Shown here piece after piece: positions 1 to 27,270 of a DNA stretch of 64,000 nucleotides; positions within the stretch are counted from its first letter, which is position 1, and every line of letters begins with the position of its first letter. The notes beneath the pieces were generated by a model. The model had not been told where the DNA came from and ran no database searches. It was given only the letters and a program-made list of their open reading frames with translations. This DNA is from Nitrosopumilaceae archaeon. GTDB lineage: Archaea > Thermoproteota > Nitrososphaeria > Nitrososphaerales > Nitrosopumilaceae. The stretch lies in NCBI GenBank assembly GCA_965214835.1, contig CBDCCK010000002.1, positions 512,001-576,000 of the forward strand, in the 5' to 3' direction. Position numbers and translations under genes: made by a program.

Positions 1-289
1 CTCAGATATTCTGACAGCGCGCGCCTCATCGCCTCAAGCGCGGAATAGTACTCGGAGACCAAGCATGTCCCTCTTTGACTGGTGCCCGTATTCCTCAATC
101 ATAACAGCTCGTGATTCTGAAGCTCAGGCGTGGTTTTGATTCCAAAATACAGGATGTCTTGGATGTAAATCATGCCTAGAATCACAAATCACTTCACAAA
201 CACGAACTGTCACAAAGATACATGATTCATTAGTGTTTGATGGGTTATGACAGATATCTAAATCTGCTAGAAATCAGTTTCACATCATT

Positions 290-916
290 TTATTTCTTTA
301 AATCCCAAACACTTTTCTTTTCTAGTAATTCTTGAATAAACTCCACGATTTCTTTTACCTCTTTTGCATATTCGGGATAAATATCAAATGCCAACCATTC
401 AGAAATTATGGAATAAACATATTTAGTCATTCGACCATATTGTGCTAGATACAATAGTCCAGCTACTGGAAGTTTAACATACCATAATTCTTTAAAATTT
501 AACATTCTGCTATTTGATTTGGATGAATGTCTTCTAAGCCATTTTGAGATTTCGTTAATTAATTCCTTATTTGATTCGGAATCGTTATCTTGGTTCTTTG
601 CAATTAAAACAGTAAATCTAACAGAATCCAAAGGAATTATTGTAGAAAATCCATTAATTTCCAAGTAACATATAGCTGCAAGTAAGCCGGTTCTTTTATT
701 TCCATCATAGAACGGATGCATTCTAATAATTCCTTCCATTAGACTAGCTGCTTGCTTGAAGATATTGTCATATGGCATCAACGAACCGATTTGTTGAGTT
801 GGTCTATCTGCAATAGATGAAAGTAACCCTTTATCTTTCACACCTCGAAATACATTAAAATGCTCCTCAACAATAGTGTGAAGTTGTAACAAATCTTCTT
901 GGGATAACTGTTTCAT
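290..916 (-). CDS. Fic/Doc (death-on-curing) family toxin
   Basis: HPFYDGNKRTG Fic/Doc motif; Doc-like N-terminus (GVKDKGLLSS..RP). Confidence 0.9.
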   Translation of the reverse strand: MKQLSQEDLLQLHTIVEEHFNVFRGVKDKGLLSSIADRPTQQIGSLMPYDNIFKQAASLMEGIIRMHPFYDGNKRTGLLAAICYLEINGFSTIIPLDSVRFTVLIAKNQDNDSESNKELINEISKWLRRHSSKSNSRMLNFKELWYVKLPVAGLLYLAQYGRMTKYVYSIISEWLAFDIYPEYAKEVKEIVEFIQELLEKKSVWDLKK

Positions 917-1017
917 TAAATTTCAGCCAGTCTTTCAAATACTGCCTTGTTCTTGTCTATGGTTCTAATGGCGATTTCTCTTAATTTTTCTTGATGAATC
1001 TTCTCACCTTTTACCAT
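916..1017 (-). CDS. 33-aa putative antitoxin (MVKGEKIHQEKLREIAIRTIDKNKAVFERLAEI)
   Basis: Read manually, below ORF-track cutoff; its stop overlaps the doc start (TAATG); C-terminal amphipathic helix resembles Doc-neutralising antitoxin tails. Confidence 0.65.
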   Translation of the reverse strand: MVKGEKIHQEKLREIAIRTIDKNKAVFERLAEI

Positions 1018-1379
1018 ACTTACCACACATAAAATTAGTATTTAATTGTAACAGATCGGGTTTATGAATGTGTTATATGGAAATAATGTCCACTATTCAT
1101 TGATGGTGCGAGTTTACCCCTCAGGCGACAAGGCTGGCCGGAACCTTCATGATCGTGCCTATTACGCCGTATTCCTCGAGATGGGGTAAACTTATGCAGC
1201 TGTGATATGGGAGACACTTAAAAATGGGGTGCATTTTCATCCATGATAAAAACCCCGGCCGGTAACACGGCGACGTTCCTTGCTTCTTCTGATCCGTGCC
1301 TAGTAGGTCGGGCCGTGCTTTATAACTAACGCTAGCAACACGCACGGATCATTGGGCAGGTGGCGGGGCAGAGGCGATC

Positions 1380-2459
1380 CTACGCCGTCGTCCCGGCCAG
1401 CTCAGTTACCCTCTTGATCTTCTTGTTGTACAAGGCATTGTTACATGATGAGTACGGAGTCTTTGTCATCAACATGTGCCAGATTATCCTAAGCATCTTG
1501 GTTGCAGCGTGGGTTATCGCTATGACATGGCTGTTGCCGTTCCTTCTGCGAACCCTCTCGTAGAACTCCTTCATCCTGTCGTCGTACTGTACGGCGACGT
1601 TGGCTATCTGGGTCATCACCCAGTTGATCCTGCGGTTTGCATCCTTTTTCATGTGACCGTGATACTCGCGGTCCCCCGACTGGTATACCCTTGGACACAG
1701 GCCGGCCCAGGACACAAGATGGCTCGGTGATGGAAACCTGGCTATGTCGCCGACCTCTGCTAGCAACAGCATTGCTGCAAAGGCCTCTATCCCAGTCATG
1801 CTCATCAGTATCTTGGCATACTCGCTGAGTCCTGCCTGTCTTCCTATGTCCTTCTCTGCCTGATCTATCTCCTTTGTGACAGATGCAATCCTCCTAGTGC
1901 AACTTGCCAGTATTCTGTTGTCGTTTGGCATGTCCAGCTCTGTCTCGGAAAGCTTTTGTATGGCCTTCCTAGAGTACATTGTGGATGCGTCTATGATTAT
2001 ATCGTACTTGTCAAGCAGGCTGTGTAGCCCGTTTATGACTGCGGTTCTGTCCTGTACAAGACGTATCCTGTACCTCATCAGCTCCCTGACATCCCTCAGG
2101 TCTGCAGGAGCTACGTAGCAGCGCGGTATCATTCCCGCCCTGAGTGTGTTGGCTATCTTCCTTGCATCTATGGGATCAGTCTTTGCGCTGGTCTCCGATA
2201 TTATCTTCATCTTGAGTGTGTTTGCCAGCAGTATGGGTATGTGATGATCCTCAAACGCCCTGAATGTCTTTAGCCACATGTTGCCCGTTGACTCGCATGC
2301 GGCCTGGCATTTCTTGTACTTTTTTTTCAGCCGGACAGCAAGCTTTGCTGCCTCCTTGTACGTGTTGTCATACGAGCCCTCCTTAAGCACGTGTCCCTTG
2401 GCGTCTACAACGCACACTGCACATCTTCTTTTTCCAATGTCTATTCCTATGCTTTTCAA
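1380..2459 (-). CDS. IS110-family DEDD recombinase (transposase)
   Basis: GIDIGK, ACESTG, KTDPIDARKIA (DEDD RuvC-like) and WAGLCPRVYQSG (catalytic Ser) motifs; likely TTG start at 2459 behind SD GGAGGTG (2471-2477) rather than 2516. Confidence 0.93.
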   Translation of the reverse strand: MKSIGIDIGKRRCAVCVVDAKGHVLKEGSYDNTYKEAAKLAVRLKKKYKKCQAACESTGNMWLKTFRAFEDHHIPILLANTLKMKIISETSAKTDPIDARKIANTLRAGMIPRCYVAPADLRDVRELMRYRIRLVQDRTAVINGLHSLLDKYDIIIDASTMYSRKAIQKLSETELDMPNDNRILASCTRRIASVTKEIDQAEKDIGRQAGLSEYAKILMSMTGIEAFAAMLLLAEVGDIARFPSPSHLVSWAGLCPRVYQSGDREYHGHMKKDANRRINWVMTQIANVAVQYDDRMKEFYERVRRRNGNSHVIAITHAATKMLRIIWHMLMTKTPYSSCNNALYNKKIKRVTELAGTTA

Positions 2460-2504
2460 TCCTTTTGTTTCACCTCCTTTCAGATTATGGTTTGATAGAT
2501 CAGA

Positions 2505-2632
2505 AGCTGCATTCATCCATCAGTGCGCGAAGCACAGGAACACAGCAGCTCGGATATCCCCATTCAACTACGAGTGCGCGAAGCACATGAAAATGAAGGG
2601 GTTGATCCATCACCCTGACTACGGCGGGGGTG
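2505..2632 (-). ncRNA. IS110 bridge RNA (5' stem, target-binding loop 2558-2601, donor-binding loop 2505-2550)
   Basis: Two internal loops, each capped by an identical GTGC-TTCGC-GCAC hairpin; guides match the empty target (CATTTTCA / GTAGTTGAA) and the circle junction (TGTGTTC / ATGGATGAA). Confidence 0.85.
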
Positions 2633-2703
2633 TTTTTATCATGTGTTCAACTACTGATTCACTATCAATCCTTAAAACACACCCTAATGTATTTTGGGTA
2701 TCA

Positions 2704-4860
2704 ATGTCGAATTCCAAGGAATCCAATCATGGCAATGAATTTCTTTTTGCGAAAGTTAAGGAAGAGGTTTCTACACGAGAAAAAAGCAAGCCTTCTCCAC
2801 ATAAACCTAAATCGTTTGAAGTCGACTTTGATCCAAGCTTAACTGATATTGAGAGTATAGGTGTCGAACAGCAAGTTAGAGAAACTGCAGCGTTTCTAGA
2901 AAAGAAAACAATTAGAGATGATGACGAAGTTTTTTACAACATTTATCCAAAATATGAAATTTCCCAGCCAAATGTAAAATATCTATTAGAAAGGTTAGGC
3001 GCACAAATCGTTGCTTATACTGATAGAAAAAATAATGGATTTTTACTTGCGGCTTCAAGACAAAGATTACAAAAATTAAGTGAAAAACCAACTAAATACT
3101 TGACCAATACTCTGAGAATAATAAAACCACTTAAACCTGGTGAACAAATCAGCAACACTCTAAGAAAAAACAAAGAAACACAAATGGCAGTATTGTCAAT
3201 AATTCCTAATCTGGAATCAGATAAAAATTTTAATTATATGGGCAAAATGATAACGTTTCTAGCAAATAACAACTGTAAATTATATGGGTTAGATTTACAA
3301 AAATACGGATTTGTTTTTGCTGATGTGACTCTTTACATAGTAAATAAATTAGTGGACGAATCTACATTCATTTTTCATATTAGTGAAGTTCCAGACGCCA
3401 TAGCACATGAGATCCGAAATTCAGAACATAAAAAAACAAAATTAGAAAAAACCAACTCTAATAATCTTAAAAATAAATTTCTTCCAACTGTTGTCTTAAT
3501 GGATAGTGGCGTTAATCCAATTTCTTCATTAGGAAAAGTGTTGATATCTCGTGATGCTTATTTATTCCAAAACTTTGATGATGAACATAGGAATCTTGGT
3601 CATGGAACTCCTATTGCTCATCTGATGGCGTATGGAGAAAATGACAAGGAACCCACTGTGAATATCATTTCTTACAAAATTTGGTCTGATGAACAGAAAA
3701 AATGGGCTTTTACAGGAATGATCAATGGAATTGAAAAATATCATAAAGAAACTCGATTTTTTGTAAGCTCCATCGGCATTCCTTTTTTACCTTTACATCA
3801 AATTGTTGTCTTGGAAAAATTAGTTCAGGAAAAAAACATTTGCCTAGTTGTTAGTGGAGGGAATATTCAACTGTCTGACATCAAAGCATGCCTTGAAAGT
3901 GGTGCTCAGTATCCCGATTATCTGAAATCTTTCCCTGTAATTCCTCCTGCTAATGGTGTGAACATCGTCTCCATAGGTTCACTGGCAAAAAAAGTAAGTA
4001 CCAAATACACGTCCCTAGCTGACTCAAATTCAATATCTCCTCACTCTAGGTGCGGCTCGGGTGCTGTCGAACTACACGATTGTAAAAAACCTGAATTAGT
4101 TGAACATGGAGGAAACATAAATGTCGATAATTCGTTTAACCTAAACTCTGAAGATGTCGGTGTGTCTTCTTTTGACAAGGATGATAATTTTGTTACTTCT
4201 CTTTCTGGGAGTAGTTTTTCATCGCCTTTGTTTGCTAGAAGATTGGCACAGATAGAACAGCGATATAGATCAAGGATCACTAACATTGAAACATTTCTTG
4301 CAATTAGCTATCTTACAAGTACCAAAAATAATGATTCTTGTTGGGGTTATGGGGAGCCAACGACCATTGTCGGATGTGATAAAAACTCTGCAATTTATTT
4401 AGCTGAGGGAAAGCTGGGTTTTACAAACACTGATGAGCAATCTATTAGAACCCCTCACAACGACATTGTGTTTTACGTTCCTCCTAGAGTAGATGAAATC
4501 CAACTTTGTATAGTACATTCTGATGATTTTAAGAAAGCAACAATTCCAACTTTGGAAACTTTTTTGGACGTTAAAACATACAAGCTTGGAAACAACAAAC
4601 TAATTCGCCCTCAAAATCGCAGCAATCTTGACTCAAAAACGAATGTTAAGATTCTTACCTACAAATTTGATTCAAAGAGCATGGAATCGATCTGGACTTT
4701 TAAAATAAGACCACGATTGGTAAACGATGTCTTAACAGAAGATAAAAGAAAAATCAACGTTAGGTACGGATGTGCAATTCTATTGAAAGGAAAGTTAGCC
4801 AGGCAGTCAAAAAAATCCCTCACCCAAGAGGTGATTGAGAATAGGGAGAAATATATGTGA
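2704..4860 (+). CDS. S8 (subtilase) family serine protease, Y4bN/IetS-like, no signal peptide
   Basis: Catalytic triad motifs VVLMDSGV, HGTPIA, GSSFSSP and KPELVEHGGN; start reassigned to ATG 2704 because the ORF-track N-terminus runs through the IS. Confidence 0.85.
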   Translation: MSNSKESNHGNEFLFAKVKEEVSTREKSKPSPHKPKSFEVDFDPSLTDIESIGVEQQVRETAAFLEKKTIRDDDEVFYNIYPKYEISQPNVKYLLERLGAQIVAYTDRKNNGFLLAASRQRLQKLSEKPTKYLTNTLRIIKPLKPGEQISNTLRKNKETQMAVLSIIPNLESDKNFNYMGKMITFLANNNCKLYGLDLQKYGFVFADVTLYIVNKLVDESTFIFHISEVPDAIAHEIRNSEHKKTKLEKTNSNNLKNKFLPTVVLMDSGVNPISSLGKVLISRDAYLFQNFDDEHRNLGHGTPIAHLMAYGENDKEPTVNIISYKIWSDEQKKWAFTGMINGIEKYHKETRFFVSSIGIPFLPLHQIVVLEKLVQEKNICLVVSGGNIQLSDIKACLESGAQYPDYLKSFPVIPPANGVNIVSIGSLAKKVSTKYTSLADSNSISPHSRCGSGAVELHDCKKPELVEHGGNINVDNSFNLNSEDVGVSSFDKDDNFVTSLSGSSFSSPLFARRLAQIEQRYRSRITNIETFLAISYLTSTKNNDSCWGYGEPTTIVGCDKNSAIYLAEGKLGFTNTDEQSIRTPHNDIVFYVPPRVDEIQLCIVHSDDFKKATIPTLETFLDVKTYKLGNNKLIRPQNRSNLDSKTNVKILTYKFDSKSMESIWTFKIRPRLVNDVLTEDKRKINVRYGCAILLKGKLARQSKKSLTQEVIENREKYM

Positions 4861-5519
4861 TGACTGGTGGATTAAACATTCTTCGTTCAAGTAAGCGCAA
4901 AGGAAAACATGAAGTAAAGATAATAATAAAATTGATCCCGTTCTTTGAAAATAAAGGATATCGGGTTATACCTCACGCTCGATTTAACATCGCCTGGGGT
5001 AATATTTTATCAGATATTGATTTGTTATTAATCAAAGACCAGCATATCGGTGTTGTTGAGGTAAAATCTTCCAAAGATAATCTGTCAAGAGCAACTAGGC
5101 AAATTGACAACATTAAAGATTATGTTGACTTCATGTATATTGCAACTGATTACACTCCAAGGAAGTTTTTGTTTAAAGATGTTGGACTGATAATTGTCAA
5201 TCAACATGTCCAGATAATTAAAACATCAGAAGCGTTTGCTGAAAAACCTAGGTTGTTTTCAATAAATTCAATTCCGAAAAAATGTCTGTGCAGAATCTTT
5301 GATGTTAAAAAAATAAAATACTCAAAAAACTCAAGCAAGTCCAAGCTTGCTAGGCAAATACTAAACAATTCTCAAAACAACCTTAAAAAAGAATTACAGC
5401 AAATCGTTACGTGTGGTTTAGAATGTGACACGCAATGTCCGATTTGGACATTTAAACACAAACAACTATCACTAGTGACAATACCCAGCAGTTCCGATTG
5501 TAGTCTGAAAATACAGTAA
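4857..5519 (+). CDS. PD-(D/E)XK nuclease-fold protein, sce7726-like
   Basis: DIDLLL..VVEVKSSKDNLSRA..Q motif; Cys-rich C-terminus; start overlaps the protease stop. Confidence 0.7.
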   Translation: MMTGGLNILRSSKRKGKHEVKIIIKLIPFFENKGYRVIPHARFNIAWGNILSDIDLLLIKDQHIGVVEVKSSKDNLSRATRQIDNIKDYVDFMYIATDYTPRKFLFKDVGLIIVNQHVQIIKTSEAFAEKPRLFSINSIPKKCLCRIFDVKKIKYSKNSSKSKLARQILNNSQNNLKKELQQIVTCGLECDTQCPIWTFKHKQLSLVTIPSSSDCSLKIQ

Positions 5520-5653
5520 AGCGGTGTAACAATTCGGGCTCTGGAAGTTCAGGCGTGAGTTTTGTCGCCCCGAAAACCCCGATCGAGCACAATCCATGCC
5601 TAAAATCGGGAACGGCTTCCAGAACGCGAACTGCTACGATTGTAAGCATGATC

Positions 5654-5962
5654 CTATGTTGTAACCTGCTCGATTCCATTTAGATGTTTTATCACGTTGT
5701 ATCCCTTTTTGCTTACCTTGTAACCTGTCCTAATTGGCCGATCCTGAGTTATCGTTCTTTCAAGCAGTCCCAAGTCTGTAAGCCTTGCCATCGTGGTGTT
5801 CACAGATGCTCTGCTCTTGACAATCTTATTGCTCATTACATATTGCGACACTGAATTATAGCCGATATTCTCGTTGTCTCGGATGTGTAAAAGCGTCTCA
5901 TAGGTGCCTTTGGTCGCAAGTACACGCAATACCTGGCCAATATCACGTTTGTCTGTTTTCAC
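5654..5962 (-). CDS. Winged-helix (HxlR/PadR-like) transcriptional regulator
   Basis: RLTDLGLLER..RPIRTGYKVSKKG wHTH signature; probable GTG start at 5962; divergent from the DUF499 operon. Confidence 0.75.
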   Translation of the reverse strand: MKTDKRDIGQVLRVLATKGTYETLLHIRDNENIGYNSVSQYVMSNKIVKSRASVNTTMARLTDLGLLERTITQDRPIRTGYKVSKKGYNVIKHLNGIEQVTT

Positions 5963-6095
5963 AGTAAAAACTAATGTCAACCATTTCAAAAATTCTAAAC
6001 TTGGATAATCTATGCTGACCTCAATATTTATGATCCTATTTATAAGAGCCCAGTCATCACAGTGGACTATTGATTGGTTTTGGTGAGATGGCCAT

Positions 6096-8741
6096 ATGAG
6101 CAACATATGGGAGGCCTGCAAGTTCAGCGACGAGATTGTCTCAGGGCATCTGGAACTGCACAAGTTTGCCGTAGAACTCCATGACGTAATATCAGGCAAG
6201 GCAGACCCAGTATACCAAGATCCAGCCATATTTTTTGATAACACATACCTGACGACTCAGATGCAGAGTGTACTTAGGGACGTATTAATGAGAACAGAGC
6301 GATCCATAGGAAAACCAGTAACCGTGATCGATACAGGCTTCGGCGGAGGTAAGACACACACATTGACTCTACTTTACCACATATTCTCCAATCCAGATCT
6401 GGGCTTTAGGTATATCAAAAAATATGGCATAGATGATGAGCTTGGAATCGAGTCGATCTCAGATGTCAGAGTTGTTGCAATTGATGGAAGGGATGTCAAG
6501 AAAAACACTCTGTGGGGGGAGATAGCTGACAAGCTTGGAAAATATGAATCAGTGCAGGAATATGACAAATCCCCAAAACCCATACATGATCTTGACATAA
6601 TCAAGGCATTCTTTGACAGGCCTACGCTGCTCATGATTGACGAGCTTCCCCACTATCTTAGCACCACACTTGCAGAAAGGATAGGAGACACTACAAAATC
6701 CAAGCTTACAGAGGACTTTCTCTATGCACTGATCAGTTCCGTGTCATCTAGTAAGAACAGCGTGTTCATAATGACACTGACAGCGAAACAGGAGCTATAC
6801 CGCAAGACCACGGATCGTATAATCGGAACAATAGCGGAGACAGATGCTGTCATAGAGGGATTAAAACAGACGATCTCACGTCAGGCCAACATAATCAACC
6901 CGGTGACAAAAGATGAAATTTATGACGTAATACGACAGCGGTTGATAAGAGAAATAAACGAGGATGAAAAAAAGAACACAGTACAAGAATATCTTGACTA
7001 TTACACGGATCAGGGATTGGTAACTGATCCAAGGTTTCAAGACAGGCTGGAAAAATCCTACCCGTTACACCCGGAATTAATTGACATGTTGTACGAGAGG
7101 GTCTCAACCATATCAAAATTCAACCAGACAAGAGGAACCCTGAGACTTCTTGCACTAGTGCTAAATGACATATACGCGAACAGGAGAAATTGCCAGCTGG
7201 TCTCTGTGGGAGACATCAACTTTGAGTCAGTGCCTATTGTAGACGAGATTACCGCAAAGATAGACAGAAACGAGTTTAGAAAGATCATAGACACAGACTG
7301 TATAGAGCACGCAAGGGAGCTGGATCGTACAAAAAACATCAAGATAGTAGAGCAGGTGGGCAAGACGATATACCTTCATTCACTGCACGAGACACCCAAC
7401 AAAAAATCCGGCATTACCTCCAATCAGATAAAACTGGTCGTTGGAAGGCCTGGCCTTGATTCGTCTCTCGTGGAAAAGGCCCTTTTGGACGACGTTAGAA
7501 AGTACTTCTGGTACATAAAGGAGAGCAACGGGCAGTTTTACTTTGTTGATGCGGTAAATGAGAACGCAATAATTGCCGAATATGCAAAAAACATAACGTC
7601 GCAAGAGATCGACGAGCAGGTTCGGGCAGAGCTTGTCACCCTTTCAAGGGGGATCTTCAAGCCCATAGTCTGGACAGATGACATCGAAGACGACCAAAAG
7701 CTGAAACTGTACCTGTTTCACTATAGGGCAGGTAATGACATCAAGACAAAGATTGTACACATGCTAGGATATGCAAGTGGCAATTCTGCGCGCAGGTATC
7801 AAAACACCATAGTGTTCGTTTATGCCGATGCTGGAAGAGTGCACCTGATAGAGAAGTATGCCAGAGAGTTGGTGGCAATAAAAAAGAGCAAAAAAGACGA
7901 GCGGATAAAAGCAGACAAGACATTTCTTCAAAACATCACGCAAAAAGAAGAGCAATCAAAGGGAAACCTGAGCAATGCGTGTCTTACATCCTACAACCAC
8001 ATCGGATATCCGAACGGCCCGGAACCAAGGCTGGACGTTATGTCGCACGCAGATATGACCAGCAATACAATCGGGGAGATGGCAAGCGAGTTTTTGAGTA
8101 AAAAGGGCAAGATGATACCTGAGATTGGGCATGATGCCATAACAGTAGAATCATCCAAAAAAGTAGAAGACATTTACAACGAGTTTCTTTATGACAAGCG
8201 GAAGAAATTCCTACAAGACATGACATCAGTAAAACAGGCGGTGTCTGATGGGGTAGTAAAAGGACTGTTTGGATATGCAAGCGAGCTTGAAAAATCAGAT
8301 GGTGGATACGCTGGCGAAATATCGAAAAAAGTCGACGTAGAGTTTTCAGGCTATGTAATACACAAGGATCATGTAAGGCCAGACTCCAAACCAGAACCCA
8401 CGAATGGATTCGATACGGACGGAGGCGGGGATTTTGGAAATGTAGAAGATCAGCACCAATACAAAATCCCACTAAATACGATTGATAGCACTCTTGGCAT
8501 CCTAGACATCCTAATCATAGGCGATTTTGCAAACATACAAAAAAACATGGACGTGAAAATACAGCTGGTAGGAAGCACCGAAATATCACTATCCAGCAAG
8601 TTGGGGGATGTCAATGCAGTAAAAAACATGATCAAGTGTTTCAAGTCATATTGTGAAGGCACCTTTGATGGCCATCTGGAGCTGCGATCTGCTGACGACA
8701 TATCTGAGAAGCTAAAGAAGCATGATCTGGTGTTTGAATGA
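6096..8741 (+). CDS. DUF499 (BrxC-like) AAA+ ATPase of restriction-like defence system
   Basis: Walker A GFGGGKTH, Walker B LLMIDE, YPLHPEL and FNQTRGTLRLL motifs. Confidence 0.9.
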   Translation: MSNIWEACKFSDEIVSGHLELHKFAVELHDVISGKADPVYQDPAIFFDNTYLTTQMQSVLRDVLMRTERSIGKPVTVIDTGFGGGKTHTLTLLYHIFSNPDLGFRYIKKYGIDDELGIESISDVRVVAIDGRDVKKNTLWGEIADKLGKYESVQEYDKSPKPIHDLDIIKAFFDRPTLLMIDELPHYLSTTLAERIGDTTKSKLTEDFLYALISSVSSSKNSVFIMTLTAKQELYRKTTDRIIGTIAETDAVIEGLKQTISRQANIINPVTKDEIYDVIRQRLIREINEDEKKNTVQEYLDYYTDQGLVTDPRFQDRLEKSYPLHPELIDMLYERVSTISKFNQTRGTLRLLALVLNDIYANRRNCQLVSVGDINFESVPIVDEITAKIDRNEFRKIIDTDCIEHARELDRTKNIKIVEQVGKTIYLHSLHETPNKKSGITSNQIKLVVGRPGLDSSLVEKALLDDVRKYFWYIKESNGQFYFVDAVNENAIIAEYAKNITSQEIDEQVRAELVTLSRGIFKPIVWTDDIEDDQKLKLYLFHYRAGNDIKTKIVHMLGYASGNSARRYQNTIVFVYADAGRVHLIEKYARELVAIKKSKKDERIKADKTFLQNITQKEEQSKGNLSNACLTSYNHIGYPNGPEPRLDVMSHADMTSNTIGEMASEFLSKKGKMIPEIGHDAITVESSKKVEDIYNEFLYDKRKKFLQDMTSVKQAVSDGVVKGLFGYASELEKSDGGYAGEISKKVDVEFSGYVIHKDHVRPDSKPEPTNGFDTDGGGDFGNVEDQHQYKIPLNTIDSTLGILDILIIGDFANIQKNMDVKIQLVGSTEISLSSKLGDVNAVKNMIKCFKSYCEGTFDGHLELRSADDISEKLKKHDLVFE

Positions 8742-9094
8742 GAATATACCACCACACACTGGAGAGAAGCAAGAGTCGAAAGTCAATCATCTTTAAGGTA
8801 CACGTGGATGACAGGTTTGGCAAACAGAGGATAAACCAGGCCTTGCTGTCCGGTTGGCGCGCCAAACTTGCAGAAAAGCGTCTGTTTTTTGACAAAGATG
8901 ACTGGGACGACGACATTGCTCGAAAGTTTGTTGGAATTATGGTTCTAAAGATTGCCCGTGATGAGTATCAAGGGACACATTTTCTCAATAACGTAGATGC
9001 TAAAAGCAACATGGAGATTCATTTCTGGGCATACCAGTTTCTGTCAAACAAAAAGGCATCACACGCGTGGAAGATCCTAAACGGTGACGTCTAG
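8738..9094 (+). CDS. Small accessory subunit at the DUF3780 position of the restriction-like operon
   Basis: Translationally coupled between the DUF499 and DUF1156 genes; family assigned by synteny only. Confidence 0.6.
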   Translation: MRIYHHTLERSKSRKSIIFKVHVDDRFGKQRINQALLSGWRAKLAEKRLFFDKDDWDDDIARKFVGIMVLKIARDEYQGTHFLNNVDAKSNMEIHFWAYQFLSNKKASHAWKILNGDV

Positions 9095-11715
9095 TGAAAC
9101 ATGCAGTAATAGAAGATTCCAACGTTGAGGTTATGGAGTTTTTTAACCGGGTTGGTAGGGCGTCAAAAAACGAGAAGCAGGCCACAATAAGCCTCAACCA
9201 GATGATGTGCTGGTGGACCCGCAAACCACTTGTGGTAGGAAAGGCTATGGTACTAGCAAGCCTGTTTGATAAGGTATCTGATGCGGAACAGTTTTTGGGG
9301 CTTGACTCACCAAAGCCATACGATCACATTCCCGATACTACCATGTTTACAAAAAAACTTGGAGTTGACCCAAAAACAATTAGCATATTAGATCCGTTTG
9401 CAGGTTCAGGCAATCTAATGTTTCCCGCCGTACAACTTGGCCTTGATGTCACTGCATCTGACTACAACCCGTTGGCATGGCTGATAGAAAAATGCGCGCT
9501 TGAACATCCTGCAAAACACGGTCGTAATTTACATGAGGATTTTGTCAAATATGCCAACAAAGCATTGGAAGAGACTAAAAAAACAGTGGGAAGGTATTTT
9601 CAAGATTCCTACCTCACATACCTGTGGTGTTGGTGCATAAGATGTCCATACTGTTCACAGAGGTTTCCTCTTACAAACCACATGTATGTTGTGAAAACTG
9701 AAAAAAGAAAGATAGGCATACGGATAATTCCAAAAGACAAGGATTTTAGCACAGAGATAGTTGATAACATATCTAAAGAAGATGGTGACAAATATACGCA
9801 GAAAAGAGGCAAGGCTGTTTGCATATCATGTACCAACACAATACAATACGATGTGATTACAAAGGACATTACGGAACATAAGGATCGCGAGATAATTGTG
9901 ATACAGGTTCAAAAGAAAAAAGGCAGGGATTATGTTATTCCAACAGAAAAAGACAAAAAGACATATCGCGATGCCATACAACACTTTAAGACAAAATATG
10001 ATGAATTTGAAAAGGAAAATCTAATACCTCATGAAAATATACATCATGATCCAAGGAATCCTCTAAAAAATTATGGTATAACTTGTTGGGATCAGTACTT
10101 TGATGAACGTCAGATGCTTGTGTTATGTACCTTTATGAAGAACATCAAAAAAACATGTGATGGGATTCCAGATGAGGTATACCGTAAAGTAATTGCCACG
10201 TATCTTTCATTTATTCTTGCAAAACGTATAGATCATGCGGGGTTTGGTGTTATTTGGGATGCCACAAGAGAAAATCCGTCACCTGCATTGTCCATGCGCC
10301 AACCTCGCTTATCATATAACTTTGCCGAGTCAAACCCATTTGAAAAAATTAGGGGAAGTATTAGTAATACAATCAAATCCGTATCTAAGGCACTAAAGTT
10401 TACTGTACGACTACAAACACCCGCCGTATGCGAAAACAGATCAGTCACGGTAGCGTGTGACAAACAGTATGATCTCATAATCACGGATCCGCCCTATGGT
10501 GATGATGTACAATATGGCGAGCTGTCCGAATTCTTCTATGTCTGGGCATATCGCATACTGTCTGAATACTATGATCTGCCGACGCGCATTCCACTAGATG
10601 AGGATTATTGTGAGAGCCGAGGACGTTTTAGCAGCAAGCAGAAGGCAAAAGAATTCTTTGGTGCCGGACTCAAAAAATCATTTAGGGCAATAAATGAAAA
10701 ACTCAAAGACGATGGGTTGGCAGTAATCCTTTTTGCCCATTCAAGCACGGAGGCCTGGAACCAATTTCTCGCGGCAATACAGGAGGCAAGACTGCGGATA
10801 GTATCAAGCTATGCAATACATACAGAAATGTCAACAAACGTAATTGCACAGAACAAGGCATCATTTCTGTCCTCCATCATGGTAACATGCAGAAAGATAA
10901 CCGGAGAATCCGTACAGTACTTTGAGGATCTGATACCTGAGATAGACGATGGCGTGAAAAAGATACTGGACGGCATTTCAGAGCAAAGACTTTTGACATT
11001 GTCCATAACCGACCTGCTGGTCATGGTGTATGGAAAAGTACTAGAGGTATCAACCCAGCACACGGTTCTGAAGAGCTATGCAAGAGACTTTACACCAGAC
11101 TTTGAGATGCTCATAAAGGATGCACGTAGTACGATCATTAAGCAGCTTGTAGTCAAGCTATTAAAAAAACAGCCGGATATCGTGGGATCCCGAATGGCGT
11201 TTTACATAATCAACAAGGTGTTTAACAGCGGTAAAGTTTCAGCAGACGATGCGCTGAAGATAGCACAGGCATACAACACAAGCCTTGTCGAGCTAAGTAG
11301 AGAAGGAGTGATAACACAAAACAAGGGAGTAGCACGCCTTCAAAGCCTAAAGCAAGACATGTACTATGAGCCAGAAGCAATTGATCCGCAGAACCTGCAC
11401 CAGCAGTTGTGCTATCTTGCATCACACGAATCAGACATGGCCGAGTTGCTGCATCACGACAACATACTGGAAAACGATCTAAAGCCCATTGTGAGTCTCC
11501 TGCTCAAAAACTACAACATGAAGAGAAATCAGGGATACAACCCAACTCCTGATGACAATGAGGAGATCCGGATACTGACCACCATGGCAGATCATATGGG
11601 GATAGCAGTAGAGCAGGATTCCCACTACAGAGCAAAGGGGGCCAGAACCAAAAAGGCTAGAACCAGAAAGAGCAGGGGGGACGAGCGCCAGTCTCGTTTG
11701 GAGAAATGGAAGTAG
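9094..11715 (+). CDS. DUF1156 amino (adenine) DNA methyltransferase
   Basis: WWTRKPL, motif I DPFAGSG, Zn-finger CPYC/CISC, motif IV TDPPYGD. Confidence 0.9.
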   Translation: MKHAVIEDSNVEVMEFFNRVGRASKNEKQATISLNQMMCWWTRKPLVVGKAMVLASLFDKVSDAEQFLGLDSPKPYDHIPDTTMFTKKLGVDPKTISILDPFAGSGNLMFPAVQLGLDVTASDYNPLAWLIEKCALEHPAKHGRNLHEDFVKYANKALEETKKTVGRYFQDSYLTYLWCWCIRCPYCSQRFPLTNHMYVVKTEKRKIGIRIIPKDKDFSTEIVDNISKEDGDKYTQKRGKAVCISCTNTIQYDVITKDITEHKDREIIVIQVQKKKGRDYVIPTEKDKKTYRDAIQHFKTKYDEFEKENLIPHENIHHDPRNPLKNYGITCWDQYFDERQMLVLCTFMKNIKKTCDGIPDEVYRKVIATYLSFILAKRIDHAGFGVIWDATRENPSPALSMRQPRLSYNFAESNPFEKIRGSISNTIKSVSKALKFTVRLQTPAVCENRSVTVACDKQYDLIITDPPYGDDVQYGELSEFFYVWAYRILSEYYDLPTRIPLDEDYCESRGRFSSKQKAKEFFGAGLKKSFRAINEKLKDDGLAVILFAHSSTEAWNQFLAAIQEARLRIVSSYAIHTEMSTNVIAQNKASFLSSIMVTCRKITGESVQYFEDLIPEIDDGVKKILDGISEQRLLTLSITDLLVMVYGKVLEVSTQHTVLKSYARDFTPDFEMLIKDARSTIIKQLVVKLLKKQPDIVGSRMAFYIINKVFNSGKVSADDALKIAQAYNTSLVELSREGVITQNKGVARLQSLKQDMYYEPEAIDPQNLHQQLCYLASHESDMAELLHHDNILENDLKPIVSLLLKNYNMKRNQGYNPTPDDNEEIRILTTMADHMGIAVEQDSHYRAKGARTKKARTRKSRGDERQSRLEKWK

Positions 11716-14700
11716 GCAGCAGTGTGAGAACCCCGGACGGCACGGGTACAATCACCAGCATGGATACCCGATCGGCCAAGGTTCAGATTGATTCAGGTTC
11801 CAAGTGGTATGAGCTTGATACCCTGGACATGATATATGACCCGATTGCAAAGATGTGCAAAAAGCAGATCGATGACTGCCTCCAGTTTGCTACGGGGATT
11901 GATGCGCACCGCCTCTACACAGAATACCGGTTCAACCCGTATGTCCTTGCAGCATCAACCAAGATCAAGATATTCCCCCACCAGATAAACGAGGTGATGT
12001 GGGGGCTTGAGAACCCCAGAATAATGATTGCCGACGAGGTAGGGCTTGGAAAAACGATAATTGCAGCGTTGATCGTGTCGGAGCTCCGCGCACGTGGCAC
12101 TGCAAAGCGCCTTCTTTTTGTGGTTCCAAAGTCCCTGCAGATAAAATGGAAGATTGAGCTTGAGCAAAGATTTGACATTCCAACCAAGATACTAGATTCA
12201 GAATATGTGAAGAACAATCCCGAACCGTTTGAAGGCGAGTTTTCATTTGTGGCATCCATGGACTATCTAAAACAGGAACACATCATATCCAAGCTCAGCG
12301 AGGAGCTTGATGTGGTGGTAGTAGACGAGGCTCACAAAATGAAAAAGGGCACGTCCAGGCTGAAGCTGGGAGAGCATCTTGCGTCAAAAACAGACACCAT
12401 GATACTTCTTACTGCAACCCCGCACGACGGCCGCGACGAGGACTTTATGGCCCGCATGAACATGCTGGACAGCTTTGTATCCGACATACGAACCGCCTCG
12501 TACCTGTGGACGCGTACCACAAAGGAGGACGTGGTGGACATCGAAGGAAAGAAGGTGTTTCCTGACAGGACAAGCAAGACAGTAGACATTGCACTACTAA
12601 ACAAGGAGCGTGACGTGATCAAGCTGCTGGAGGGGTACTTTGATCACATACAGTCAAACGTAAAGACGCCACGTGAGGAGAGCATGATCAGATTCCTCAG
12701 GCACATATACCGAAAAAGGGCCAGCTCGTCACTGCACTCACTGGAAATATCCCTAAGACGCAGAATTGACAAGCTTGGCACAGCAGATACCGACATAGAA
12801 AGCGCACTGACCAGGCTGGACTATGACTATAGCGAGGACATAGAATTTGAAGACATTGAAGGGTATGAGGGATTCACCATATCCGACGTGGATCGGGAAA
12901 AGGAGATGTTGACAGAAATCACAAAGCATCTGGAACAGCTTGACTGTGATTCCAAGCTGGATCATTTGAAGCGGTTCATCAAGACGCTAAAGGAGGACAG
13001 GCCGGATGCAAAACTGGTACTCTTTACAGAATACCGCGACACGCTGGACTATCTTGCGGCATCTCTTGATTATGAGATTGGAAAGATAGACGGCACCATG
13101 TCGATAACAGAGCGCCAAGACGAGCTTGAGAAATTCAAAAAATCAGACGGATACGAAGTCATGCTGTGCACAGATGCGGCGGGGGAGGGAATAGACATGC
13201 AGTTTTGCAACGTGGAGATAAACTATGATCTCCCGTGGAACCCGAACAGGCTTGAGCAAAGGATGGGCAGAATACACAGGATAGGACAGGATCAGAATGT
13301 CTTTTATTACAATTTTGTGGTCGATTCCAAATCAAGCATTGACGGATACATAATGCAAAAACTGCTTGAAAAAATAGAGCAGATAAAGGCGGCGATGGGC
13401 GACAAGGTGTACGATGTGGTGGGCTCGCTCATAGGATCAGAGGAATTTGGGCGGTACTATGACGAGCTGCGCAATATACCAAGGGACCAATGGGAACCGA
13501 AAATCGCTGTCCTGATGTCCGCAATAGAGGCCATGCGGTACGATGTTTTGGAGAAGAGGAAGATGCTGCTAGAGGGAAACAGGCTTGACTCTACAAAGCT
13601 TGAAGACATACAAAAGATACGCGATACTGCCATAGTAATAGACGAGGTAAAGCGGTTTTTGCAGGTGTTTGTAGAGACAAACGGGGGGAGGATGGATCGT
13701 ATTGATTCCGACAAGCAGCTATACAGCATACGCCTTTCTGAGAGGCATTCAAAGGAGCTTGGATTAGGTGAGATCGTTGGGACCTTTGACGGCACAACTG
13801 CAGAAAAAGAATCATACGAGTACCTTGCGCTTGGAAACCACAGCATAGAAAAGATACTAAGAAAGGCAGCATCAGATCATGTTGCATCACTTGGGCACGA
13901 GAGCCAGGAAGGAGTATTGTGCATATACAAGATAACCATAACCGACGGCCAGGCAAAACAAAGGGATTCCAAGATAATTGCGATATTTGAGCAATCCGAC
14001 GGCGTCATATATCAGGTTGATGAGAGAAGCGTGTGGACATACAAACAGTCAGATAGAGAGGTCAACATAGATTTTGCCACAAGTGCAAGCAAGCGAATAG
14101 AGACGATTGCATCCAACATGGCACAGAAACAAAAAGAGTCCATAGATCGCAAATTAAGAGAGATCAAAAAGAAGACCAAAACTGCGCGTAATGGATACTA
14201 CGCAAAAAAGATAAGTGATATAAAAGTGAGAATGGGTGAGCTGCAACAAAACGACGACGGGCCTCATGTTGAAAGAATAATAGACGAGCGCAAAAGAAAA
14301 ATAAAGACGCTAGAAAAGCAGGCGGATATCGAGTACCAGAAACTGGACAGGCAATTTAATACCGCCACTAGGATAGACCTGATTGGAATTGCACAGGTGA
14401 CTGCAGATGATGGCGCAGACATTCACATACGCATAGACGAAGCTGGAATGAAGGCAGTCCTCGAATCGGAAAGAAAAAGGGCACCAGACGAGCATGCCGT
14501 AAAACAGCTTGAGGACTGCTCCAAGAAAAACTGCGGGTATGACGTAGTATCATTTGACAGAAAAATAGAGGTAAAATCGCACAAAAAGTCCGGCAGTATA
14601 ATGCTGACCGACCACGAATGGAAAACGGCAGAAAGGCTGCAGGATGAATACTGGCTTTACGTGGTAGAACACGTATTTGAAAATCCGCGCATAACGGCGA

Positions 14701-14798
14701 TACAAAACCCGGCATCAAAATTCCATGGTCACATAGAAAAAATTCCATCCAAGCAGTTCAGATGGGTGATCCATGACTGGAAAGAGAGATCCATCTAG
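11706..14798 (+). CDS. SNF2-family helicase with C-terminal DUF3883-like nuclease
   Basis: IADEVGLGKT, DEAH, LLTATP, WNPNRLEQRMGRIHRIGQ; C-terminal GYDVVS..IEVKS..EW..A..YWLYVV. Confidence 0.92.
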   Translation: MEVGSSVRTPDGTGTITSMDTRSAKVQIDSGSKWYELDTLDMIYDPIAKMCKKQIDDCLQFATGIDAHRLYTEYRFNPYVLAASTKIKIFPHQINEVMWGLENPRIMIADEVGLGKTIIAALIVSELRARGTAKRLLFVVPKSLQIKWKIELEQRFDIPTKILDSEYVKNNPEPFEGEFSFVASMDYLKQEHIISKLSEELDVVVVDEAHKMKKGTSRLKLGEHLASKTDTMILLTATPHDGRDEDFMARMNMLDSFVSDIRTASYLWTRTTKEDVVDIEGKKVFPDRTSKTVDIALLNKERDVIKLLEGYFDHIQSNVKTPREESMIRFLRHIYRKRASSSLHSLEISLRRRIDKLGTADTDIESALTRLDYDYSEDIEFEDIEGYEGFTISDVDREKEMLTEITKHLEQLDCDSKLDHLKRFIKTLKEDRPDAKLVLFTEYRDTLDYLAASLDYEIGKIDGTMSITERQDELEKFKKSDGYEVMLCTDAAGEGIDMQFCNVEINYDLPWNPNRLEQRMGRIHRIGQDQNVFYYNFVVDSKSSIDGYIMQKLLEKIEQIKAAMGDKVYDVVGSLIGSEEFGRYYDELRNIPRDQWEPKIAVLMSAIEAMRYDVLEKRKMLLEGNRLDSTKLEDIQKIRDTAIVIDEVKRFLQVFVETNGGRMDRIDSDKQLYSIRLSERHSKELGLGEIVGTFDGTTAEKESYEYLALGNHSIEKILRKAASDHVASLGHESQEGVLCIYKITITDGQAKQRDSKIIAIFEQSDGVIYQVDERSVWTYKQSDREVNIDFATSASKRIETIASNMAQKQKESIDRKLREIKKKTKTARNGYYAKKISDIKVRMGELQQNDDGPHVERIIDERKRKIKTLEKQADIEYQKLDRQFNTATRIDLIGIAQVTADDGADIHIRIDEAGMKAVLESERKRAPDEHAVKQLEDCSKKNCGYDVVSFDRKIEVKSHKKSGSIMLTDHEWKTAERLQDEYWLYVVEHVFENPRITAIQNPASKFHGHIEKIPSKQFRWVIHDWKERSI

Positions 14799-15029
14799 AG
14801 TCAGGTTTTGATCCGGTAACAAAATGTGCTACTGTTATCCAACTCTGCGGATCATCTGGATTATTTTTAAAGTACTTTTCAAACGATAAAAAGATTCGAT
14901 CATCCGTTTATTTTTTGGATTTTCTGCTGTATAGAAATAGCAAAAGACGACATGGATCCTCGTAGGAAAGACTCGGGTTAATTACAGATCACTTCTCTGC
15001 ACATGAGAGTGTTTTTCACATTGGTTAGG

Positions 15030-15320
15030 TCACTTGATTCTGCTACCAAACACTCTCAGCATCGCATCAAGGCCGGCAATCCTGCCTTCCAGATACTTTA
15101 TCCTTTCATCCGACGGCAGGTATCTTGCATGCTCTTGCACGCCCTTGAGATACCTGGCAAACGACCTGTCAAACGTCTTGTCCGCCATTTTGATCCCCTT
15201 GCACAGGTTCTGCAGGTTCAGGCCATCAAGCCCGGACTTTTTTCCCAGGAACAGCTGGGACTTGCCTGCCAGAAAATACAGATACTCCGTCCCGTGGTTT
15301 GTCCTGACTACGATCCCCAT
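15030..15320 (-). CDS. Small integrase-associated protein (paralog of 31579-31863)
   Basis: GTEYLYFLAGK..LFLG aligns with GIEYLYFQAGK..IYIG; same position divergent from a recombinase. Confidence 0.7.
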   Translation of the reverse strand: MGIVVRTNHGTEYLYFLAGKSQLFLGKKSGLDGLNLQNLCKGIKMADKTFDRSFARYLKGVQEHARYLPSDERIKYLEGRIAGLDAMLRVFGSRIK

Positions 15321-15360
15321 GCCTGTGTATTGTTAGCGTACAAACCATTAAATAAGCGTA

Positions 15361-15381
15361 TGTGTATTCTAAGAATACACA
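15361..15381. promoter_or_regulatory. Perfect palindrome in the divergent promoter region (TGTGTATTCT-A-AGAATACACA)
   Basis: 10-bp arms read directly from the sequence. Confidence 0.55.
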
Positions 15382-15464
15382 AAATGACACGCTTAAAACG
15401 CCCCAAAGGACAAATAGCTCCCAAACCATATCAAGGCAATGAAGTCGCCGAGAGGCTGACCGAT

Positions 15465-16667
15465 ATGGGAAAAAACAAACTTGCTACAAGAAAAGACACT
15501 GTCAAAAAACAGGCAAAGGCAACGCGACTGCTGGCACATCCTGACGTGCGGAGGTGGTACGACAACCTTGCGCGCGGGAGCGTGCTTACGGCAAACAACT
15601 CGCTGCGATGCATCGACAAGTTCTGCGAGACACACGGCATGTCTCCTACCGAGCTGGCAGATCTCGGAGTCAGGGATCTGAGGGCAGTCACGGACCTCAT
15701 CGAGGATCACGTCACCATGATGGAGTCCGAGAACTACTCCTCCGGATACGTGACCCTGACCGTCCAGATCATAAAGTCCTGGCTGAGGCACTCTGACGTG
15801 GTGATCAAGCGCAGGATAAAGGTGACCCCCAACAGGAACTAGAAGACAATCCAGGGCGAGCGCGTTCCAAACGCGCAGGAGATGTCCGAGATATACGGCC
15901 GTGCGGGACTGCGGGAGTCAGTCATAATATCTCTGATGGGCAAGTCCGGGCTGAGGCCGGAGACCATAGGCAACCACGACGGCACGGACGGATTGTGCAT
16001 GAGCGATCTTCCGGACGTGGTAATACACCAGGGAACGGCAAAGTGCATAAGGACGCCGTGCATGGTGACTGTAAGGGGCACGCTGTCAAAGGCACGCCAC
16101 CAGTACTTTACGTTCATGACTGCGTCTGCAACCAGGAACCTCACGGCATACCTCAACGACAGGCTCGCCCACGGGGAGCCGCTGCACGGGAGCTCGCCGG
16201 TGGTGGCGCCGGATCACATCCACAAGACGAATCGGGGCCGCAACAGGGACAAGGAATTCCTCATTACATCGCAGGTAAGCCACCTGGTGCGCAGGACGTT
16301 CAGGCCGAGGTTCACGTGGAGGCCCTACGTGCTGCGCGCGTACTTTGACACGCAGCTGCTGATCGCCGAGTCCAGGGGAAGGATTGCGCATGACTTTCGC
16401 GTCTTCCTTATGGGGCACAAGGGAAGCATGGAGGCGCGATACACCACGAACAAGGGCGTGCTGCCCGACGTCCTGCTAGACGAGATGCGGGAAGCATTCG
16501 GACGATCCGAGGAGCACCTGGACCAGGCAGAAGCCGATCCAATCCTGGAACAAAAGCAGGAGGCGCTGCGGATGATAGAGGGGGCCACGCCGGATCAGCT
16601 CGGGCGCGTGCTAGAGGCACTGCAGACGGTGCCGGCAATACGCGCCAGGGCAGATCGTGGCAGATAG
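15465..16667 (+). pseudogene. Tyrosine recombinase/integrase interrupted by an in-frame TAG (15840-15842)
   Basis: ORF-track ORFs 15003-15842 and 15882-16667 share a frame and together align with the intact paralog at 32094-33287; SGLRPE, RPYVLRAYF, MGHKG..EARY motifs. Confidence 0.8.
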
Positions 16668-27154: not shown

Positions 27155-27270
27155 CTTGTTGATATGCCTTCTGACATGTCAGACAAGGTACAATAAAGTG
27201 GGTGGGAATGAATAAAATGCGCTACACGTGTGAGTTATCTAAACATATGACTAAAGCCTTGTGTGCTATG

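Follow-up and report, generated by a model that had tools for sequence, protein, structure and literature searches.

Two adjacent genes of a Nitrosopumilaceae archaeon probably form a functional unit, and their association goes far beyond chance. They lie in the window analysed here, a stretch of 64,000 nucleotides (GenBank assembly GCA_965214835.1, contig CBDCCK010000002.1, positions 512,001 to 576,000), where an open frame of 718 amino acids (aa) for an IetS-like S8 subtilase (2704..4860, plus strand) is followed by an open frame of 219 aa for a cII/sce7726-like PD-(D/E)XK nuclease (4860..5519, plus strand). So far the pair is found only in archaea and on one virus-like contig. What might it do? 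The reading that we prefer, though tentatively, is that of an archaeal conflict module of two genes that is horizontally mobile, with the IetS-type protease as the executioner and the nuclease as its keeper or sensor. The role of such a module would probably be antiviral defence, element addiction, or both.

Recurrence, coupling and co-divergence of the pair

An initial annotation of this DNA had proposed the two genes as a candidate defence system, and the recurrence of the pair elsewhere had been set beforehand as a test. With the protease alignment as query, 14 loci were found on genome contigs. Six of them are distant bacterial loci and eight are archaeal, the latter from Nitrosopumilaceae (4), Bathyarchaeia/Bathyarchaeota (3) and an 'uncultured archaeon' (1). 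The nuclease gene stands directly 3' of the protease gene in 8/8 archaeal loci and in 0/6 of the distant bacterial ones. With the nuclease alignment as query, metagenome contigs gave 33 loci, and the protease gene is directly upstream in 25 of them; the other eight comprise four with fewer than 100 bases upstream and four that carry the nuclease only. After identical nucleases were dropped, 30 paired loci, 4 solo ones and 4 undecidable ones were left as distinct rows. The pair is also carried by one 28-kb IMG/VR contig, which encodes a phage cement protein about 6 kb from the pair (33.3 bits) and gives a weak match to an HK97-type capsid (22.9 bits, cut-off 24.2). A tblastn search of the nuclease against 50,697 GenBank phage records gave no match. 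The distribution is very patchy: a sample of 401 genomes of the phylum gave strong matches to the nuclease profile in 2 (the window's own genome and genome G389) and to the profile of the pair's protease family in 1.

How closely are the two genes held together? The TGA of the protease gene and the ATG of the nuclease gene use one common A at the overlapping stop/start ATGTGATG (4855..4862, plus strand), and a GGGAG motif lies at 4844-4848, 11 nt 5' of the nuclease ATG. To judge from the sequence, the overlap and the motif amount to translational coupling of the two genes. The open reading frames (ORFs) overlap or abut in 7/7 loci compared (the window, L001-L005 and L007), and they overlap or leave a gap of at most 2 nt in L071 as well. 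The proteins also diverge together: over 20 loci the identity matrices of protease and nuclease correlate with a Mantel r of 0.90, and 0/2000 permutations gave a value as high.

The description of the pair as AT-rich and translationally coupled thus holds. The two-gene cassette (2652..5525, plus strand, about 2.9 kb, between the end of an IS110 element and a dispersed repeat) has a G+C content (GC) of 34.4%, against 52.8% for the window from 16 to 64 kb, and the GC at third codon positions (GC3) of the protease and nuclease genes is 0.28 and 0.31, against 0.65 in two housekeeping genes. Since both GC and GC3 lie so far below those of the host, the cassette was imported recently.

The two proteins, their relatives and the partners they lack

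The protease was described at the outset as a cytoplasmic subtilase with an intact D/H/S triad and an N-terminal region of about 260 aa, and each part of this description stands. It scores 60.2 bits on Pfam Peptidase_S8 (PF00082; cut-off 21.8) over residues 290-526; the triad D267, H300 and S504 and the oxyanion residue N387 are invariant in 32/32 aligned homologues, and no hydrophobic, signal-like stretch was seen at the N-terminus. The AlphaFold2 (AF2) model has a mean pLDDT (the per-residue confidence score of the model) of 89.7. From the N-terminus, it consists of an alpha/beta region (1-255, the linker near 241-260 being weaker), a subtilisin catalytic domain (about 257-558) and a C-terminal beta-domain that reaches to about residue 700. 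Within 257-558 the fold matches subtilisins with Z of about 28 and a root-mean-square deviation (rmsd) of 2.0-2.4 over about 235 residues, and the model aligns to KP-43 as far as residue 694. Among the Atlas look-alikes of the N-terminal region, PF27160 Y4kK_N occurs in only 11-16% of the members.

Homology to IetS extends over most of the protease. The PADLOC IetS profile (PDLC02197) matches residues 116-524 with an E-value of 2.4e-28, and an hhalign comparison of the protease family with an IetA-linked IetS (L012) gave a probability of 99.6% (E 2e-23, 523 columns), with residues 132-690 aligned to 132-705 of IetS. The homology covers the second N-terminal, the catalytic and the C-terminal beta-domains, whereas the first 130 residues or so do not align to IetS. 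The likeness extends to size (718 aa against about 750 in IetS), to the cytoplasmic location of both proteases and to the occurrence of both as part of a two-gene operon in defence islands. It does not extend to the partner, which is a downstream nuclease in our pair and an upstream IetA ATPase in IetAS. Nor does the protease reach the cut-off of the NCBIfam IteS equivalog (NF042956), on which it scores 73.9 bits against a required 900. In a FastTree tree of 39 sequences, the 34 proteases of the pair's family form one clade with support 0.993; the clade includes 31 database proteins whose gene context was not checked one by one. Outside it fall the IetA-linked IetS proteins of bacteria (L011, L012) and of an archaeon (L070), together with the proteases of L009 and L069. 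The last of these, encoded by ORF 8740-10827 of L069 (G300:C20, another archaeon of the phylum), is an IetS-like protease intermediate between both clades; a 481-aa gene of no known kind lies upstream of it, and the contig ends inside the protease ORF.

Residues H39, N43, W46, S51, D54, E67, K69, S70, D73, Q81 and D90 of the nuclease are invariant in 46/46 sequences. D54 and E67-x-K69 make up the PD-(D/E)XK catalytic motif, on a restriction-endonuclease-like alpha/beta fold. The cysteine-rich tail noted at the outset (CLC..C..C..CP) is conserved in part: C142, C185, C189 and C193 are all present in 36/38 locus nucleases, although C144, the second cysteine of CLC, is not conserved. The cluster is specific to the family, a CxxxCxxxC-like motif being found in 28/40 of its representatives and in 1/83 sce7726-like proteins, and is most likely a metal site that the nuclease has gained. 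The AF2 model has a pLDDT of 84 and a disordered tail at 198-219. Its best structural match is SPO1766 (3dnx), with a Foldseek E-value of 1.6e-6 and, by VIA-align, Z 11.0 and rmsd 3.5 over 126 aligned residues (model residues 13-188); next come AF1548, NucS, Can2/Card1, Hjc and restriction enzymes. The Pfam MmcB-like 'DNA repair protein' family gives 21.8 bits, just below its cut-off of 22. It should be noticed that 'DNA repair protein' is the Pfam description only, that 3dnx is titled 'protein of unknown function', and that identity to MmcB-like/SPO1766 proteins is 13-16%; no protease partner was found described for the MmcB-like family.

By sequence relationship, the nearest relatives of the nuclease are the proteins of the sce7726 / phage P4 cII family, as the initial annotation had held. 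The NCBIfam model sce7726_fam (NF033832) matches the nuclease at E 4.4e-9, but the 36.5 bits fall short of its cut-off of 70. A profile search of 1.84 billion representatives gave 52 proteins with E<=1e-30 and 64 with E<=1e-10, then a gap and about 400 weak relatives; 20/20 sampled weak relatives match NF033832, 18/20 of them above the cut-off of 70. P4 cII itself scores 151 bits on that model, RefSeq labels P4 cII 'sce7726 family' and P4 beta 'beta family', and the precomputed Pfam label of the window's nuclease and of many relatives is PF26915 (PF26915.1), Phage_P4_cII. Direct hhalign comparison of the nuclease family with P4 cII alone gave a probability of 12% over 40 columns around E-x-K, so the link to sce7726 is drawn from the NF033832 score and from the nearest relatives in the exhaustive search instead. 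The core motif D...E-x-K-S-x-x-D...R...Q...D-x-x-Y and the fold class are shared with cII/sce7726 proteins; the sub-threshold score and the four-cysteine cluster set the family apart. A further weak relative (E 9.1e-9 to the family profile) is encoded elsewhere in the window's own genome by ORF 1492-2490 of L016 (G000:C2:2893811-2897143), a protein of 332 aa whose C-terminal part matches PADLOC PDC-M05A with E 2.6e-46.

Each of these two families has a usual partner of its own, IetA for IetS and beta for sce7726, and the genuine IetS genes with IetA directly upstream (L011, L012, L070) and the RefSeq labels of the P4 proteins bear this out. The initial annotation had found neither partner adjacent to the pair. 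Does this hold at the other loci? Neither an AAA+ ATPase nor a beta-family gene is a conserved neighbour of the pair, whether in the window or in the flanks of the genome and metagenome loci. In particular, the position immediately 5' of the protease gene is never taken by an IetA-type ATPase in the 8 genome and 14 metagenome loci whose flanks were examined, while the three genuine IetS loci served as positive controls. Elsewhere in the window's genome, an IetA profile search turned up Cdc48/PAN-like AAA+ proteins, double or single, and nothing else; as 14/14 control genomes also gave matches, it is uninformative. PF14350 (Beta_protein) had 0 matches in the window's genome, but 0/14 control genomes matched either, so this negative is weak. 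The beta partner is thus absent beside the pair; Gop was not searched for, and what the pair shows of gop-beta-cII is its cII-like component only, in a distant form.

Was an ATPase simply lost at the window's locus? This had been offered as the finding that would undo the proposal, in the form that homologous loci always include an ATPase lost here, and the data do not fit it. Canonical IetAS is present in the same order: L070 (G377:C1:1510000-1525000) carries at 6300-9502, on the minus strand, an IetA of 301 aa and an IetS of 766 aa, which also means that IetAS is not confined to bacteria. The IetA-linked proteases and those of the pair fall into separate clades. As the two pairings are separate lineages, a partner swap is indicated, and the loss of an ATPase was rejected. 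The L070 genes themselves have a SIR2-domain protein and an OLD/GajA-like fragment as neighbours.

Is such a pair already known? Of the PADLOC v2 profiles, only that of IetS matched, on the protease and without a system partner, and the pair was not matched as a system, in line with its initial description as new. The literature searched gave no pair of a subtilase with a cII/sce7726 or other PD-(D/E)XK nuclease, though the supplements of Evans et al. (2025, bioRxiv 10.1101/2025.11.14.688446) may list further S8-linked effectors; one supplementary file of Liu et al. (2026, PMC13069673) contains no Peptidase_S8, PF00082, sce7726, Beta_protein or ietS. The novelty therefore probably lies in a new combination of known families within a two-gene, protease-containing conflict module. 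On the whole, the idea of a self-standing module has withstood the tests set for it and the initial interpretation is supported in part; an anti-viral function is suggested only by the context of the pair.

The direction of control between protease and nuclease

Both parents of the pair are of use in thinking about its mechanism. The gop-beta-cII system, which like the pair is carried by mobile elements, gives protection from lambda and P1 (Rousset et al. 2022, PMC9122126), and a phage accessory gene is reported as its trigger (Silas et al. 2023 preprint); its cII and the nuclease of sce7725/sce7726 are not coupled to a protease as the nuclease of our pair is, and the pair in turn lacks an adjacent beta-family gene. 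Defence by IetAS/ietHAS needs the protease activity, with the roles of toxin and antitoxin reported for IetS and IetA respectively and the mechanism given as unknown (Liu et al. 2026, PMC13069673). That the homologous IetS is the toxin of its own pair suggests a direction of control opposite to that in the initial annotation, where the protease controlled the nuclease.

The preferred scenario starts from a partner swap between the IetAS and the P4 cII / sce7726 systems, both mechanistically unsolved, in which the IetS-type subtilase architecture would have been kept and the place of IetA taken by a translationally coupled, four-cysteine nuclease of the cII/sce7726 lineage. We infer the rest, including binding between the two proteins, toxicity, trigger, direction of control and anti-viral function. 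In an uninfected cell, a harmful protease would be kept inactive by its prodomain-like N-terminal region and by the co-translated nuclease, which would act in the keeper or sensor role of IetA. On infection, either invading DNA would engage the nuclease or a viral factor would disable it, and the protease would be released. It might then cut host or viral proteins so that virus multiplication is aborted, and the nuclease may in addition cut the invader directly. In so specific a form, that in archaeal immunity or addiction a DNA-sensing metallo-nuclease of the cII lineage has taken over from IetA the keeping and triggering of an IetS-type executioner, the idea is rather unlikely to be right in all its parts.

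Which of the two proteins can do without the other? Four distinct loci carry the nuclease only, L034-L036 and L017 (the same as L057). The neighbours in L034-L036 are a tRNA synthetase gene, a geranylgeranyl-reductase-like gene and C2H2 zinc-finger genes. In L017/L057 the nuclease (L057:5986-6660) is part of a shikimate operon with the order aroD, nuclease, aroE, shikimate kinase-like gene, aroA and aroC. In the nuclease tree the solo nucleases are nested among the paired ones in two lineages, so that two changes are needed. They keep every catalytic and cysteine residue, and that of L017 does so despite a branch length of 1.14. Besides these, in 3/8 genome loci the nuclease is intact but the protease beside it is truncated (L004) or has a broken frame (L006, L008), while a missing nuclease was seen in 0/8 of the archaeal genome loci that the protease query gave. 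Because the catalytic and cysteine residues are kept in the solo loci, the nuclease is evidently tolerated without the protease, and on the strength of these sequence comparisons it has a protease-independent function. The asymmetry of loss is the pattern expected if the protease is the costly partner, which slightly favours the protease as the harmful component.

The same pattern speaks strongly against one form of the initial proposal, in which the protease is an antitoxin that continuously degrades a constitutive nuclease toxin. Tight gene coupling and co-divergence would suit such an arrangement. A constitutively toxic nuclease would not survive the loss of its antitoxin, though, and here intact nucleases, with all their catalytic residues, persist without a protease in four loci and beside broken proteases in three. 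We take the loss pattern to rule this alternative out, and at best it is highly improbable.

The other form of the proposal, activation of the nuclease by cleavage, is possible. Here a subtilase activated by infection, via its N-terminal region, would cut a latent nuclease and unleash DNA degradation, a possible cut site being the disordered C-terminal tail beyond the cysteine cluster. Linked modules of protease and effector have been reported as widespread, including an S8-associated clade of metallo-beta-lactamase (MBL) nucleases; proteolytic licensing was shown there for trypsin-, caspase- and S8-linked MBL nucleases, and protease-effector co-evolution was used as a signature (Evans et al. 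2025, bioRxiv 10.1101/2025.11.14.688446). Our pair resembles these modules in its cytoplasmic protease gene conserved beside a nuclease gene, in co-divergence and in a defence-type context; both of its active sites are invariant, and the low-confidence tail 198-219 of the nuclease could be the cleavable element. There are differences too. The effector fold is PD-(D/E)XK and not MBL, no sensor fusion such as a STAND domain can be recognised, and the nuclease also exists alone. PD-(D/E)XK or cII-like effectors lie outside the ten families named in the preprint (MBL, alpha/beta-hydrolase, Pepco, EACC1, PCaspase, bGSDM, CATASP, MPE, CalpT and Csx30). Apart from the tail, the nuclease model is confident and has no low-confidence insert in the fold. 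The solo nucleases retain their catalytic and cysteine residues, one of them after long divergence, and the homologous IetS is reported as toxic by itself (Liu et al. 2026, PMC13069673). Taken together, a nuclease that awaits cleavage is a doubtful explanation, and on account of the loss pattern we prefer an IetS-type executioner protease to a protease-activated nuclease.

Then is the pair a part of immunity at all? The nuclease could be an MmcB-like enzyme of DNA repair or recombination with a subtilase dedicated to its maturation or turnover, or the two genes could be a purely selfish addiction cassette, which would stabilise islands, proviruses and segments flanked by insertion sequences (IS) without protecting the host. 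SPO1766 as the best structural match, the borderline MmcB-like score and the housekeeping surroundings of the solo nucleases, the shikimate operon among them, are in keeping with the first version. For the second, IetAS originally came to light as a toxin-antitoxin pair that stabilises plasmids (Liu et al. 2026, PMC13069673), and our pair is often flanked by IS elements. A non-immune role is nevertheless unlikely. It agrees poorly with the patchy distribution (2/401 phylum genomes for a strong nuclease match), the foreign base composition of the cassette, the recurrence of restriction-modification and other defence-type neighbours and the homology of both partners to validated anti-phage components, and a repair role would leave the obligate coupling to a 718-aa protease unexplained.

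Several points weigh against the executioner protease with a nuclease keeper. It is not obvious why a keeper-type antitoxin should need a fully conserved nuclease site and a metal cluster, which one would sooner expect to see conserved in an effector. The order of the genes, with the protease first, is the reverse of ietA-ietS. The toxicity of IetS comes from one paper's summary of Yamamoto 2009 (in Liu et al. 2026), and function is inferred for every member of the family. The asymmetry of loss is built on few events: L006 and L008 are metagenome-assembled genomes (MAGs), whose frameshifts may be assembly errors, and the conservation in L034-L036 says little because that clade is shallow, which leaves L017 as the only strong case. 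In the window, the IS end is only 52 bp upstream of the protease gene, and at 8/21 loci with usable flanks only housekeeping or unknown neighbours are seen. A prediction of the protease-nuclease complex with both alignments had a score of 0.00 and says nothing either way.

The pair is worth attention on several grounds. As a natural hybrid of IetAS and gop-beta-cII parts it indicates that the components are modular, and with only two proteins it is a minimal system for asking what IetS-type proteases target and what cII-type nucleases sense or cut. For archaeal immunity, it comes from little-explored hosts, the Nitrosopumilaceae-type ammonia oxidisers and the Bathyarchaeia. The nuclease-only descendants, one in a shikimate operon, are a natural experiment on the nuclease by itself. 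If the keeper role of the nuclease were true, cII-like nucleases and IetA ATPases would be interchangeable control modules, two validated and mechanistically unsolved systems, IetAS and gop-beta-cII, would be linked, and ammonia-oxidising and Bathyarchaeia archaea, together with at least one of their head-tailed viruses, would own a protease-based system of abortive infection. If licensing by cleavage were true, PD-(D/E)XK nucleases would join the proteolytically gated effectors.

Flanks and neighbouring genes

The left flank of the cassette is an IS110-family insertion sequence (about 1238..2651, minus strand), with a transposase at 1380-2516 that matches Pfam DEDD_Tnp_IS110 and Transposase_20. 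The window's genome holds about 10 near-full copies with 85-88% identity, and many right ends of about 160 nt occur alone, scattered over the chromosome; the element is highly active in this genome. Where does the protease gene begin? Two longer frames, the 860-aa ORF that opens at 2278 and the 739-aa version of the database record, with its start at 2641, were rejected, as each extends into IS110; position 2704 is taken as the true start because the homologues begin at the equivalent position. A TTAAAA box (2672..2677, plus strand), 27-32 nt 5' of the protease ATG, is a candidate archaeal TATA element, and the same box is found in L001, L002 and L003 about 25-32 nt 5' of the protease start. 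It sits downstream of the IS110 end and is hence retained in the window. From this position and the equal spacing in L001-L003, the box may be the protease promoter, and the promoter may have survived the insertion.

The right flank, directly after the nuclease stop, is a dispersed repeat of 113 bp (5526..5638). It has 42 matches in the genome (41 and the window's own copy) with 72-89% identity. The repeat has no Rfam match, and an Rfam search of window positions 1-16000 gave nothing; its predicted fold is unremarkable (z = -1.6). It may be an element resembling a miniature inverted-repeat transposable element (MITE). Assembly contigs from 4 public sequencing runs that contain the pair end at 2627 and 5563, that is, at both flanking repeats, and the summed contig depth is high at 5450-5643.

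The initial annotation placed the pair between a toxin-antitoxin module and a restriction-like operon. In outline this is so, with a doc gene upstream and an Hma-type system downstream, although an IS110 copy stands between doc and the pair. The Doc/Fic death-on-curing toxin gene (290-916, minus strand) matches TIGR01550 with E 7.2e-15. Upstream of it, two small minus-strand ORFs (1062-1217 and 1121-1345) have no family match and could encode the Doc antitoxin. The region also contains, at about 1100-1196, a repeat of roughly 90 nt that the genome carries at least ten times. The Hma-type system at 6096-14798 is complete. It consists of HmaC/DUF499 (6096-8741, PADLOC 4.7e-70), the HmaB/DUF1156 methylase (9094-11715, 1.1e-57) and the HmaA SNF2 helicase with a NOV_C domain (11706-14798, 4.6e-87), and includes a 118-aa ORF of no family. 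A variant of ietAS that recruits a DrmD-like SNF2 helicase has been described (Liu et al. 2026, PMC13069673); given this variant, the Hma neighbourhood may be more than a coincidence, although no such helicase recurs at the other loci.

What surrounds the pair elsewhere? Its flanks vary from locus to locus. Among 21 distinct loci with usable flanks, 13 have a gene of defence type or of a mobile element no more than about 6 kb away, a count taken without a background control. Restriction-modification genes, MmeI-like or of type I, lie near the pair in L003, L039/40, L048 and L052; E2/ThiF/TIR genes in L001; NERD in L037 and L049, the latter with PLD; an integrase with an AAA_15/23 ATPase in L058; and Hma and Doc in the window. 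IS110 or IS240 transposases are found near the pair in the window, L003, L005, L039/40, L048, L052 and L065. One of these, an IS240/IS6-type DDE transposase of about 294 aa, is found repeatedly at a distance of some 380 bp, downstream of the pair in L039/L040, L048, L052 and L065 and upstream of it in L005; often the gene that comes after it is a restriction-modification gene, MmeI-like or of type I. It may be that the pair travels with IS6-type elements. In L001, a Nitrosarchaeum MAG, the genes just 3' of the pair (11343-13856) encode a Prok-E2_E protein, a ThiF-type E1 and a TIR-domain protein, and resemble a ubiquitin-like conjugation defence module.

Farther along the window, core genes such as that of ribosomal protein S3Ae begin near 16.8 kb. 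A second patch of low GC lies at 25658-31193 on the minus strand, with 36% GC at 30-32 kb. It encodes a type III restriction-modification pair, with mod at 29463-31193 and a res-like gene at 27271-29466, and a protein that scores 3.5e-148 on the PADLOC dCTPase profile.

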